A program made the translations under genes and the position numbers. A stretch of 64,000 nt of DNA, taken from assembly GCF_017348835.2 (NCBI RefSeq), contig NZ_CP072317.1, one strand, 5' to 3'. Source of the DNA: Escherichia coli. Its GTDB lineage: Bacteria; Pseudomonadota; Gammaproteobacteria; Enterobacterales; Enterobacteriaceae. Numbering within the stretch: the stretch's first letter is position 1; each line of letters starts with the position of its first letter. The notes beneath the pieces were generated by a model, which saw nothing but the letters and a program-made list of their open reading frames with translations, searched no databases and was not told the DNA's origin. Shown here in pieces: positions 43,552 to 46,548 of the stretch.

Positions 43552-43743
43552 TCACCTGTTTATGCTGCCCTGAAGGATGTAGTGACCGCCGAGGAATACA
43601 GCCTGCTGATTCGCCACAAAATCGCAGATTTCATCAACAATCTGCGCAGTGGTGAGCGGTTTCTGCCCCATTTCACGACGCCGCGCATTAATCACGGCTT
43701 TGTAATTGCGCAGAATTTCGCGGGTTTCTGTGCTGATATTCAT
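43552..43743 (-). CDS. hypothetical small protein
   Basis: 63-aa ORF, start overlapping the stop of the 140-aa ORF. Confidence 0.4.
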   Translation of the reverse strand: MNISTETREILRNYKAVINARRREMGQKPLTTAQIVDEICDFVANQQAVFLGGHYILQGSINR

Positions 43744-44162
43744 GACATGTGCTCCCCGTCCAGCGCCTGTAACACAACGTCCATTGCTTCGCGTTCTTCC
43801 CTGACGAATGCGTCACCGTCGCCCCCGTTCTCGCTCCCGACGGCATACAGGCGCTTCATTTCACTGCCTGCCAGCGCCATCACTTTTTCCAGCATCACCG
43901 CCGGAACTGTCACCTGACGGCTGGCGCGCTTTTCTTCCATCAGCTCACGAACAACGTCGTGAACAATGCTGACATCCGCACCATGCGCAAAGGCATCGTC
44001 CAGTCGCTGCATGACGGTTTCCAGCTCATCGTCTGTCAGACTCCAGTCCTGGGCTATGTGACGCACATCCCCACGGGTCAGCACCACGGCAAAAACGCAT
44101 TCACTGTCCGGCACGTCTGTGTTCAGCACTTCGCGGATAATTTCTTTAACAGTACAGTACAT
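43740..44162 (-). CDS. hypothetical protein, paralog of 45879..46313
   Basis: 140-aa ORF; shares MY.T N-terminus and VTVPA motif with the 144-aa ORF. Confidence 0.5.
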   Translation of the reverse strand: MYCTVKEIIREVLNTDVPDSECVFAVVLTRGDVRHIAQDWSLTDDELETVMQRLDDAFAHGADVSIVHDVVRELMEEKRASRQVTVPAVMLEKVMALAGSEMKRLYAVGSENGGDGDAFVREEREAMDVVLQALDGEHMS

Positions 44163-44208
44163 GTTCTCGTCTCCTTTACAGGGGCGGCATTGCCGCCCCG
44201 TCCGTTAA

Positions 44209-44634
44209 TCAGTCCAGTGCCGCGTAAATCGCGTTGCATTCGGGGTGAAATTCGATGTGACGCCACAACTGCGCATCGCGCATCCGGTAAAGCTGGGTCA
44301 GTCCTGCATCCCCGCTGTCGTGGTACAGCCACAACTGGCGGTTAATCACAAGGGAAGTCAGAATGATGCCTGCGGCATCAGCACTCACGGTACGGTCAAA
44401 CCAGTTTGCACCGTTCACCATGTGGAAACGGTCGCCATCCGGCATCATGTAACCGCCACCGTCCGGCAGGCGGATGAAGTGCCAGAAGCCTCCCTGATAT
44501 TCCGGCATCATTTTTTGCGCCAGCGCGTACACATACGCCTCGGCATACAGAAAATCGTTGCCAAACAGATACGGTAGAAAGGAGAGACGGTCGCACTCTT
44601 CAACGTTCAGAGTGACAGGTTTCGCATATTGCAT
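44209..44634 (-). CDS. klcA: KlcA/ArdB-family antirestriction protein
   Basis: 141-aa ORF with motifs resembling KlcA ([35 protein letters not shown]); RBS AGGAGG-like at 44640-44650. Confidence 0.7.
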
Positions 44635-44659
44635 GATGTTTTCCTCCGTTGTTCACATA

Positions 44660-44910
44660 TTCCGCGACACCGGGCGGTGCCGTGCCTCCATCGTAGCCGG
44701 GCGATAAGGCGGGGATGCACAGGGCGCAAGGGAAGCCGCAGCCTGACGCACACGGCTGGCGGGAGTTGGAGGGTGAGACCGCGAAATCTGAGCGGGTGAA
44801 CGACCGGAAAATCACGGCAGACGGGAAGGAGGGACCGGGTGACCGCAGCGGCGAAGCGTACCCTTGCATCCCTGCCAGCCCGGCTACGATGGAGGCACGG
44901 CACAGCCCGC
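44660..44910 (+). promoter_or_regulatory. long imperfect hairpin immediately 5' of klcA (candidate ssDNA promoter, unrelated in sequence to Frpo)
   Basis: ~26-bp perfect inverted repeat arms (44673-44700 and 44877-44904) with partly palindromic interior. Confidence 0.45.
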
Positions 44911-45051
44911 ACACGACGCTGAGGCCACATAACTGAAAACCCACAAGGCCATGCCCCGCATGGCCGGGTAAAGCGGAGCCGGCGGCGACTTCCTTTGTGC
45001 TCTGTCCGGGGACCGGCAGGAAAAAGGCGGGGATTTACCCCGCCAACGTCA

Positions 45052-45879
45052 TCATTTCCGGATTTTTGCCAGGGCATCCGCCATGCTGCGGATTTCGGCC
45101 CGGGCTTCCCGGACCACCTCCCGCAGAACACCACGGTCAAACCAGCGGCGGGGCGGTTCATCCGGTATACGCAGCACATCGCAGGCCAGCCCACTGGACA
45201 GGATATGCTCAATACAATCGCTGACCAGGTACATTTCCACCGACGAAAAACGTGCTCCCCGGTTCACGATGGCATCGAGCACCACGGGCAGGTTTTCGTC
45301 ATCTTCATCGAGCCAGCAGGGGTGATCGCTTTCCTTCACAACCAGACGAAAGCGGCGCGTCTGGCGAGTCAGCAACGTCTGACCGGTGGTGGTCAGCGCC
45401 GCCCGGATACGCCGCGCATCTTCTGCCACCCGGCAACTGACACTGCGTACCGCATCGCGCACCGCCGCAAGTACAGCCCTGATTTCGTCTTCGGTCAGCC
45501 ATTCTCCGGCATACGGGAAAGACACCTGCGTTCCGTCTGCCGGAAGTACCGGCAGCGACTGCCACTGACTGCCGGACAGTACCAGTTCCGCCCCGGTTCC
45601 GGTCAGTTTCTGAATGGCGGAGGCCAGGAGCGGCGGCAGTACGCCGCCGTGACGGTTGATAAGTAACGTCGCCAGCCGGGGCGCATCCAGCAGAACATAA
45701 ATGCTGATCCAGCCCGGATACTTCGGGTTACGCTGGTCAACATCCGTCTCTTCCGGCCAGCCCTGCGCCAGCAGCAGGTTGCGGGCGTGACGACAAATCA
45801 GTGCGTTCAGCGTGCTGTTTTCGTTCATGATTAAGCGTTCTCCCTGTATCGCCGCCCGCAGGGCAGGCGGCGATAACAT
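45052..45879 (-). CDS. hypothetical leading-region protein (275 aa)
   Basis: ORF abutting the 144-aa ORF. Confidence 0.5.
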
Positions 45880-46313
45880 CAGTCGTTTTCGTGTGTGTTG
45901 TTTTTCAGCAGGGTGCGGGCCTGATTAACCACCTCCTGACGGCGGGTGACGCATTCCGGGACGGCGAGGCCATGATCCCGGGCGGCCCATTCACGTTTCC
46001 ACAATGCCTGTTCAGCGGTCTGAATCAGGGACGCCAGCAGTTCAGCAGGGACGGTCACCAGGCGGTTTTCGCTCTCGTTGCGGATAATCTCCATCACCGC
46101 AGCGGAAGAAATACCGGACTCAATCCGCTGGTCTTCCGGGATGTCCTCCAGGCGTGCCAGGACGGTCCTGATTTCATGACCGGTCAGAGAAATTTCCATA
46201 CCGTCAGCCAGTGCCTGAATCTCTTCCGGGGACCAGATAACCAGCATCAGCGGCATGTCTCCCGGATACTTTACTGCCAGCTCCCGGCATAGCGTTTCGC
46301 ATGTTCCGTACAT
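45879..46313 (-). CDS. hypothetical protein, paralog of 43740..44162
   Basis: 144-aa ORF. Confidence 0.5.
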
Positions 46314-46326
46314 TCTCGTCTCCTTC

Positions 46327-46548
46327 TCAATCTTTAAAGCACGCTTCCAGTTCCAGAATTTCGGTATATGCCTCCATCAGGAGGCGGTTTGCGCGAAACA
46401 GCGTCTGACGCACCAGACGTTCCGGCAGGGTGTCGGCATTAAAGCTGTACCGCTGCTCCATCTCATTCATGGTTGTACGCAGGTCGCACATGGCATTGGC
46501 CACCTCCGCCACTTCGGCGCGCAGTTTTTCGTGTCCTGCATAGTTCAT
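46327..46548 (-). CDS. hypothetical small protein
   Basis: 73-aa ORF abutting the methyltransferase stop. Confidence 0.4.
   Translation of the reverse strand: MNYAGHEKLRAEVAEVANAMCDLRTTMNEMEQRYSFNADTLPERLVRQTLFRANRLLMEAYTEILELEACFKD

Follow-up and report, generated by a model that had tools for sequence, protein, structure and literature searches.

Anti-defence islands have been described in plasmid leading regions (Samuel et al. 2024, PMC11541004): uncharacterised families cluster there with an orphan methylase and an antirestriction gene, and the transferred strand serves as the template for all of them. In pESBL and F, 5'RACE and RNA-seq placed class 2 and class 3 single-stranded-DNA promoters upstream of the operons for KlcA and M.EcoGIX homologs, with the class 2 homologs of both plasmids starting transcription on single-stranded DNA in transconjugants and being inactive as double-stranded DNA (PMC12672017). 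In the class 2/ssp2 promoter, which precedes klcA or ardA, the transferred strand folds into a large hairpin in which -35- and -10-like boxes are paired (Wen et al. 2025, PMC12672017; Fraikin et al. 2026 preprint, bioRxiv 10.64898/2026.01.09.698686), and ssp2 has been mapped in F between yffB and yfgB. Characterised relatives also exist for two of the proteins involved, namely the antirestriction proteins KlcA (RP4/pBP136, PDB 2KMG) and ArdB (PDB 2WJ9), and the single-strand-specific methylase M.EcoGIX of pESBL (Fomenkov et al. 2020, PMC7736820), of which the F methylase gene has been called a homolog (PMC12672017).

The locus analysed here, a seven-gene block within a window of 64,000 nucleotides from Escherichia coli, resembles these systems closely. 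All seven genes recur on plasmid F (NC_002483, aligned at 53.8-58.0 kb, with yubD to yubK at 54.1-57.9 kb) without any change of order or orientation; the two versions are collinear, share 94% nucleotide identity over 4.2 kb and encode proteins that are 90-98% identical, except for YubE at 75%. The block is the counterpart of F yubD to yubK and forms the oriT-distal part of such a leading region; IncI/K plasmids carry it under the names yfbB to yffA. The two plasmids differ downstream: in F, ssb directly follows yubK, whereas the window has a DUF3560/methyltransferase operon between these two genes, together with a third Frpo-like repeat. The plasmid setting is further marked in the window by a tra operon, FinP, the traJ 5'UTR, sok and CopA, and the same leading region holds klcA, the methylase, ssb, psiB and hok/sok. 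The + strand carries a nic-like site of oriT at 31800, 12-15 kb from the block, whose genes all lie on the - strand and so have the transferred strand as template. Next to its other six genes are an orphan DNA methylase gene and Frpo-like repeats, and the block combines a place in the first-transferred region with a transferred-strand template and clustering with known anti-defence genes, as in the islands of Samuel et al. The anti-defence context that an earlier note on this DNA had proposed is therefore well founded. The block occurs in more than 5000 plasmids in PLSDB and was present in the IncI-gamma/K and IncK2/Z plasmids that we examined. It is real but ordinary: the block itself, its two-operon layout and its single-stranded-DNA promoters have already been published, and what comes from the present analysis is the clade-specific pairing of its DUF1380 proteins with either the methylase and YubE or KlcA.

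The earlier note had read the genes between 43552 and 46548 as one operon. The six open reading frames that it listed are all present at those positions on the - strand, and they are co-directional, closely packed and set among anti-defence genes, which speaks for a single antirestriction operon. The 417-nt gap between yubG and klcA (44635-45051) argues otherwise. Directly after the yubG stop codon, at 45017..45044 on the - strand, lies an intrinsic-terminator-like hairpin (GGCGGGGTAAATCCCCGCC, followed by TTTTTCC) with 7 G-C pairs, and a stem is found at the same position in related loci, at the 3' end of the alignment. The rest of the gap contains a long hairpin of about 240 nt (44671..44909, + strand, the transferred strand), whose 32-nt arms at 44671-44702 and 44878-44909 are 97% complementary and whose single-stranded fold has a z-score of -6.6. 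In 7 distant loci this hairpin is kept ahead of klcA or ardA, and 19 of 52 pairs show compensatory changes; its 3' arm carries a conserved -35-like TTGCAT and a -10-like TACGAT (TAnAGT motif) that pair with the 5' arm, each box matching only 4 of 6 consensus positions across a spacer of only about 15 nt. A strand test based on G-T versus A-C counts gave 16 versus 1, but the complement control folded equally well, and we do not rely on this asymmetry. The gap hairpin has the position of the published class 2 promoter ssp2, is likewise a large hairpin of the transferred strand and lies in a block 94% identical to F; it appears to be a homolog of ssp2, and as such it would serve as the promoter of the downstream genes. 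In some records an overlapping chance reading frame in this region is annotated as 'DUF1472'; we rejected this frame (44607-45212) as a gene, given its pN/pS of 0.96, its indels and stops, and its overlap with the hairpin.

The terminator-like site, the conserved hairpin with its -35- and -10-like boxes and the published 5'RACE and RNA-seq data together lead us to divide the block into two putative transcription units, one comprising the methylase, YubE, YubF and YubG (unit A) and the other KlcA, YubJ and YubK (unit B). The right edge drawn by the earlier note also falls too early, as the first of these units extends on to the methylase gene at 46549-47232 and the hairpin upstream of it.

That upstream hairpin (47292..47516, + strand, the transferred strand) could be the class 3 single-stranded-DNA promoter from which unit A is read. 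It is an inverted repeat with 30-nt arms that are 83% complementary, it has a single-stranded fold z-score of -6.9, and its sequence is kept upstream of the methylase in three further loci (L007, L014 and L016); a class 3 promoter has been reported at the equivalent place, upstream of the M.EcoGIX homologs of pESBL and F (PMC12672017). The first gene of the unit encodes an orphan N6/N4 DNA methyltransferase of 227 aa (F yubD; 46549..47232, - strand) with no nuclease gene adjacent. It matches NCBIfam NF010253 (2e-150), PADLOC MTase_II and, in the PDB, beta-class methyltransferases such as CcrM (2.2e-16), and it is 98% identical to the F methylase with a pN/pS of 0.15. Its likeness to M.EcoGIX lies in its domain, its orphan state, its place at the head of an early leading-region operon and the homology stated in the literature for the F gene. 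Next comes YubE (46327..46548, - strand; 73 aa), which matches phrog_4830 (1e-33), has a pN/pS of 0.25 and has homologs in distant loci that carry the precomputed family PF27407:YubE and always sit between a methylase and a DUF1380 gene. The DUF1380 protein YubF follows, and the unit ends with YubG (45052..45828, - strand), a protein of 258 aa without a Pfam family. YubG corresponds to what had been listed as a 275-aa reading frame; this is a real gene, but its first 17 codons are an upstream extension and the conserved product starts at M18 (window position 45828), as judged from the 777-nt RefSeq gene, from the match of phrog_8919 to residues 18-275 (3e-141) and from an alignment with homologs of 41-60% identity that share 48 invariant columns. 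Its AF2 model has a pLDDT of 86.9 and its pN/pS is 0.24.

Unit B opens with klcA (F yubI; 44209..44634, - strand), which encodes an ArdB/KlcA-family antirestriction protein of 141 aa. Its identification as KlcA/ArdB-like stands: the protein matches KlcA (2KMG, E 1.8e-18 over residues 5-141), ArdB (2WJ9, E 3e-7) and the anti-restriction family phrog_10132 (9.2e-20). Like the characterised proteins it resembles over its full length, and whose size it shares, it belongs to Pfam PF03230 (Antirestrict), a likeness drawn from sequence comparison for a protein encoded in a leading region. Its pN/pS is 0.11. The divergent DUF1380 protein YubJ comes second, and the unit closes with YubK (43552..43743, - strand), a basic protein of 63 aa; 4 nt are shared between its start and the yubJ stop. 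YubK matched no known family but is annotated in RefSeq plasmids, and it has a pN/pS of 0.09 and no stops in 6 diverged plasmids.

The window is GC-rich here (57-61% G+C) and full of overlapping chance reading frames, one of which is the frame annotated 'DUF1472', so one might ask whether the 63-aa, 73-aa or 275-aa frames are chance frames too. We see virtually no prospect of this. Gene-wide pN/pS values computed for each gene across 6 diverged plasmids range from 0.09 to 0.44 for the seven genes, indicating purifying selection on all of them, and those of the three frames in question (0.09-0.25) contrast with 0.96 for the DUF1472-like frame; there are no stops or frameshifts in the six plasmids; a Shine-Dalgarno-like GGAG precedes the ATG of each of the six reading frames by 6-10 nt; and distant homologs exist for YubE and YubG.

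The block also encodes a pair of DUF1380 proteins, YubF (45879..46313, - strand; 144 aa) and YubJ (43740..44162, - strand; 140 aa). The earlier note had suspected from a shared N-terminus and a VTVPA motif that the two are paralogs and had called for a pairwise alignment, which upholds their relatedness: BLASTP aligns 111 aa of the two (29% identity, E 2e-7), and the aligned part takes in both MYCT/MYGT and VTVPA. YubF is a canonical member of the family, matching PF07128 over model positions 1-137 of 137 (E 2.4e-49). YubJ matches the same model weakly (1.2e-3, positions 1-102); it aligns end to end in the DUF1380 alignment, is named DUF1380 by RefSeq and has clade relatives that carry precomputed PF07128, and phrog_9024 is common to both proteins (2.1e-68 for YubF and 8.9e-5 for YubJ). 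Both therefore belong to DUF1380. The family is uniformly acidic, mostly with a pI of 4.4-5.0 (4.77 for YubF and 4.48 for YubJ), and the AF2 model of YubF is all-helical with a pLDDT of 91.9. Both families, DUF1380/YubF and YcjA/YubJ, are already among the commonest uncharacterised leading-region families in Supplementary Table 1 of Samuel et al. (2024, PMC11541004), where the families are listed separately. The homologous-protein searches listed relatives only at 81% identity or more.

Genomic context separates the two proteins sharply. In all 11 of the YubF-type loci that we fetched (27-48% identity), YubE is directly upstream, with the methylase upstream of YubE wherever the contig allows, and in 6 of 6 YubJ-type loci a KlcA homolog (31-41% identity) is directly upstream at a distance of about 45 nt. 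One locus, L018, repeats the window's whole arrangement at about 33% identity. The neighbour-joining tree of DUF1380 likewise splits by context, and the duplication is ancient, with one clade linked to the methylase and YubE and the other to KlcA.

These observations bear on the remainder of the earlier reading, according to which a duplicated module in the single operon is diversifying under selection by host defences. The two DUF1380 genes do have the highest pN/pS of the seven (0.44 for YubF and 0.27 for YubJ), but these values are well below 1, the proteins are only 29% identical and fall into two old clades that follow their context, and a single gene, rather than a module, is duplicated. 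The 73-aa and 63-aa proteins, which we considered as further paralogs, do not resemble one another, nor are the remaining neighbours related. With the terminator-like site and the conserved promoter hairpin splitting the block as well, this explanation is largely refuted and now seems very improbable. We infer that the DUF1380 proteins are not a recently duplicated, diversifying pair.

Our preferred explanation, in which we have considerable confidence, is a two-unit F-type leading region with partner-linked DUF1380 proteins. Shortly after conjugation, both units would be transcribed from the single strand that has entered, unit A starting at the hairpin promoter upstream of 47232 and ending at the terminator-like site at about 45020-45044, and unit B starting at the conserved hairpin at 44671-44909 and encoding KlcA, YubJ and YubK. 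The methylase would then protect the incoming strand by modification and KlcA would block type I restriction enzymes, with the acidic, all-helical DUF1380 proteins perhaps acting as partner-specific accessories, either as binding or modulating factors or as additional decoys. Among the block genes, evidence of anti-restriction activity is confined to klcA and the methylase. Foldseek searches of AFDB50 returned DUF1380 members and no other fold match, sequence searches of NCBIfam, Pfam, PADLOC and the PDB gave nothing for DUF1380 beyond the family name and nothing for YubE, YubG or YubK, and no function for DUF1380 was reported in the papers searched. Because no informative fold match was obtained, roles proposed for DUF1380 and YubG stay at the level of suggestion.

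An alternative is that DUF1380, YubE, YubG and YubK have nothing to do with restriction and instead serve plasmid establishment, with possible roles in modulating the conversion of single- to double-stranded DNA, the SOS response or host physiology, and that they adjoin the methylase and klcA only because early genes share single-stranded-DNA-promoter operons. Such roles are known for the leading-region proteins SSB, PsiB and YfjB (host reprogramming), the ssp2 hairpin itself controls conversion timing, and neither the sequence nor the fold of these proteins ties them to restriction. Nevertheless, the clade-specific pairing holds even though the partners have diverged to 31-41% identity and even where the downstream antirestriction gene swaps between klcA and ardA, while co-expression alone predicts a looser pairing than is seen. 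We therefore regard this alternative as unlikely. Conserved synteny is itself a sign of co-inheritance and co-expression, and not of physical interaction. Going beyond the two-unit, partner-linked model, one possibility, which we raise tentatively and rate as rather doubtful, is that the DUF1380 proteins are cofactors of plasmid antirestriction, each specific to its partner, and that the family has gone unrecognised as such. The YubF clade together with YubE would be needed by or would tune the single-strand methylase, and the YubJ clade would bind KlcA and widen or regulate its activity against restriction enzymes. If true, such a cofactor role could explain the often weak or absent activity of KlcA or the methylase when tested alone. 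How active KlcA homologs are varies with their expression level and with the restriction system. Counting against our preferred explanation, one study saw no measurable effect when klcA was deleted from other plasmids (PMC11602122).

The strict and ancient pairing of each DUF1380 clade with its partner is an increment rather than a surprise, and it provides a cheap and concrete hypothesis. The block is found on thousands of clinical resistance plasmids of the IncF, IncI and IncK groups, and a new host expresses its genes among the earliest, which means that they bear on how resistance plasmids pass restriction barriers.

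The window belongs to an F-type conjugative plasmid, with the tra operon at low coordinates on the minus strand, FinP and the traJ 5'UTR at ~30.9 kb, sok at 35.0 kb and CopA at 62.8 kb. Because a nic-like sequence, AGTGTGTGGTGCT, sits on the plus strand (31800-31812), plus is the transferred strand. The leading region extends from ~31.8 kb up to parM/stbB at 47.7 kb, and its genes all lie on the minus strand, so that the transferred strand is their template. The block studied here is at the far end of this region, 12-15 kb from oriT, and is well known: positions 43400-47760 are collinear with, and 94% identical to, plasmid F (NC_002483, 53.8-58.0 kb), in which all seven genes are likewise annotated (methylase, 73 aa, DUF1380, 258 aa, antirestriction, DUF1380 and 63 aa). 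They are named yubD to yubK in F and yfbB to yffA in IncI/K plasmids. At 90% identity or above, the block is present in more than 5000 PLSDB records; those examined include MOBP/MPF_I plasmids of the IncI-gamma/K and IncK2/Z groups. Leading regions are enriched in uncharacterised families, and the DUF1380/YcgB/YubF (3957 members) and YcjA/YcgC/YubJ (3145 members) families rank with the largest of these (Samuel et al. 2024, PMC11541004, Supplementary Table 1). The object is the classical leading region of F, which had been annotated before and whose transcripts were recently dissected.

Several other features mark the surrounding sequence. A ~440-nt repeat, 89% identical and with internal inverted symmetry in each copy, occurs three times (33964-34402, 39440-39878 and 42746-43183), placed upstream in the minus sense of the hok-side genes, ssb and a 76-aa/DUF3560 operon, respectively. 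These repeats resemble single-stranded-DNA promoters of class 1 (Frpo/ssi). The published F map has two, Frpo1 and Frpo2; the present plasmid appears to have a third. The antisense sRNA AS-pc01 of Rfam is matched on the plus strand at 42509-42610 (89.7 bits against a gathering threshold of 79). A sigma-70-like promoter (42474-42502) and a terminator (42584-42607) accompany this candidate, whose 5' end overlaps the start of the opposite-strand 76-aa ORF (42284-42514). An otherwise 99.9% identical Klebsiella plasmid (CP023934.1) carries a group II intron (ltrA) between ssb and yubK, at 1747-3414 of the compared locus, a position equivalent to the 42.2-43.5 kb spacer of the window.

All six ORFs of the klcA neighbourhood described in the earlier note were found where it had placed them, each preceded by a GGAG-type ribosome-binding site. 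The central gene, klcA (44209-44634), is indeed a KlcA/ArdB homolog, as judged by matches to 2KMG (1.8e-18) and 2WJ9 (3e-7). The ORF given as 275 aa is a real gene, yubG, although the conserved protein begins only at M18 (position 45828) and has 258 aa (yubG, 45052-45828). This start is based on the RefSeq annotation, a phrog_8919 match to residues 18-275, and relatives that are 41-60% identical with 48 invariant columns. Some public records give the name "DUF1472 domain-containing protein" to a 201-aa ORF (44607-45212, minus strand) overlapping the klcA-upstream hairpin; with a pN/pS of 0.96, indels and stops, this ORF is spurious, a mis-annotation of the hairpin region.

Pairwise alignment confirms the proposed kinship of YubF (144 aa, 45879-46313) and YubJ (140 aa, 43740-44162): they are 29% identical over 111 residues (E 2e-7, single comparison), in an alignment that takes in the MYCT/MYGT N-terminus and the VTVPA motif. 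YubF is a full-length DUF1380 protein (PF07128, 2.4e-49) and YubJ matches PF07128 weakly (1.2e-3); the two share a PHROG and both are labelled DUF1380 in RefSeq. The 73-aa YubE (46327-46548) and the 63-aa YubK (43552-43743) are unrelated to each other, and therefore a single gene, rather than the module envisaged earlier, has been duplicated.

DUF1380 is a small family, with 148 representatives at E <= 1e-3 among 1.84 billion, many of them fragments. Across the genomic neighbourhoods that we examined for divergent members, YubF-type proteins (27-48% identity; public plasmid loci L003-L005, L007-L009, L014-L018 and L020) had a YubE homolog (PF27407) directly upstream in every case, and an N6_N4 methylase upstream of that wherever the contig extends far enough. 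They are sometimes followed by a YubG homolog, a 220-400 nt gap, and then klcA or ardA. Each YubJ-type member (L006, L010-L013 and L018) is preceded, at a distance of ~45 nt, by a KlcA homolog only 31-41% identical to the one in the window. L018 reproduces the window's order, DUF1380, gap, KlcA, DUF1380, at ~33% identity, and a neighbour-joining tree sets the KlcA-linked clade apart from the methylase/YubE-linked one. The duplication is old and its partners are fixed. Public databases contain DUF1380-YubG proteins of 375-418 aa (P0124, P0274, P0275 and others) and a divergent 190-aa protein, P0237, whose DUF1380 body continues into a YubG-like stretch. These could be artefacts of frameshifting or genuine fusions, and in the latter case would support a functional link. 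P0218 (1741 aa) and P0248 (1264 aa), both much longer, match DUF1380 query residues 33-97 at 9 and 11 separate places, respectively, and are probably repeat or low-complexity proteins.

The idea that the paralogs diversified under selection finds no backing at the gene level. Pooled Nei-Gojobori counts from six non-independent comparisons of the window with plasmids 2-21% different in individual genes gave pN/pS values of 0.09 for yubK, 0.11 for klcA, 0.15 for the methylase (46549-47232), 0.24 for yubG, 0.25 for yubE, 0.27 for yubJ and 0.44 for yubF, and orthologs in the six plasmids contain no stop codons or frameshifting indels. Purifying selection thus acts on all seven, which are coding genes; the DUF1380 genes are the least constrained, and these comparisons show no sign of diversifying selection. 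Comparison with L021, L023, L026 and F revealed two allele classes of yubE, ~79% versus 95-99% identical in nucleotides to the window; the YubE protein is 75% identical to that of F. The flanking genes stay at 87-97% across these comparisons, a pattern suggesting that yubE alone was swapped by recombinational replacement. In a Serratia plasmid (pJSRIV001_1, locus 1429-3969), an IS66 element replaces yubE, yubF and the yubG 5' end between methylase and klcA, which shows that this module can be lost while methylase and klcA stay.

The block is not one operon, as had been supposed, since a 417-nt gap (single-stranded DNA fold z-score -6.6) with a terminator-like stem and a conserved promoter-like hairpin separates yubG from klcA. 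Directly 3' of the yubG stop, a T-run follows a G+C-rich stem (45044-45026, minus strand), and upstream of klcA lies a long hairpin with 32-nt arms (44671-44702 and 44878-44909) that are 97% complementary. Seven distant loci have this element too, placed before klcA or ardA, and RNAalifold gives them a common hairpin in which 19 of 52 pairs are maintained through two-sided changes; the 3' arm has conserved TTGCAT and TACGAT/TAnAGT motifs, both paired with the 5' arm. As a guide to the strand on which the hairpin acts, G-T versus A-C counts seemed asymmetric, yet the complement folds equally well. A second large hairpin (47292-47516, z -6.9), upstream of the methylase, is conserved in L007, L014 and L016. 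The corresponding regions of L003 (4660-5045) and L020 (2268-2618) are unlike it and resemble the class 2 (klcA/ardA-type) hairpin; promoter hairpins seem exchangeable between operons. Six ssDNA-promoter operons have been mapped in pESBL, where klcA and ardA are preceded by class 2 promoters and M.EcoGIX by one of class 3, and F has conserved both classes (Wen et al. 2025, PMC12672017). The ssp2 of F, between yffB and yfgB, stalls complementary-strand synthesis (Fraikin et al. 2026). The two-unit layout and the klcA hairpin match these published maps.

Hairpin-driven expression of two operons is established by the present analysis together with the F and pESBL literature: once the DNA has been transferred, hairpins on the incoming strand would recruit RNA polymerase, so that two short-lived operons are transcribed. 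Judging by family membership, the methylase would then modify incoming DNA and KlcA would inhibit type I restriction enzymes. For DUF1380 no function is reported in the literature searched. YubF is confidently predicted (pLDDT 91.9) to be all-helical: residues 5-82 form a small N-terminal domain, and residues 90-142 an antiparallel helical hairpin at the C-terminus. Members of the family are uniformly acidic, mostly at pI 4.4-5.0, as are known antirestriction proteins, a resemblance that is weak evidence. Synteny suggests that each paralog would be a binding or modulating factor for its own partner. Less probably, DUF1380 proteins are general establishment factors that merely have early operons in common with antirestriction genes. 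The strict pairing of DUF1380 clade to partner is the one modestly new point of this analysis, and it turns the cofactor role into a testable hypothesis.
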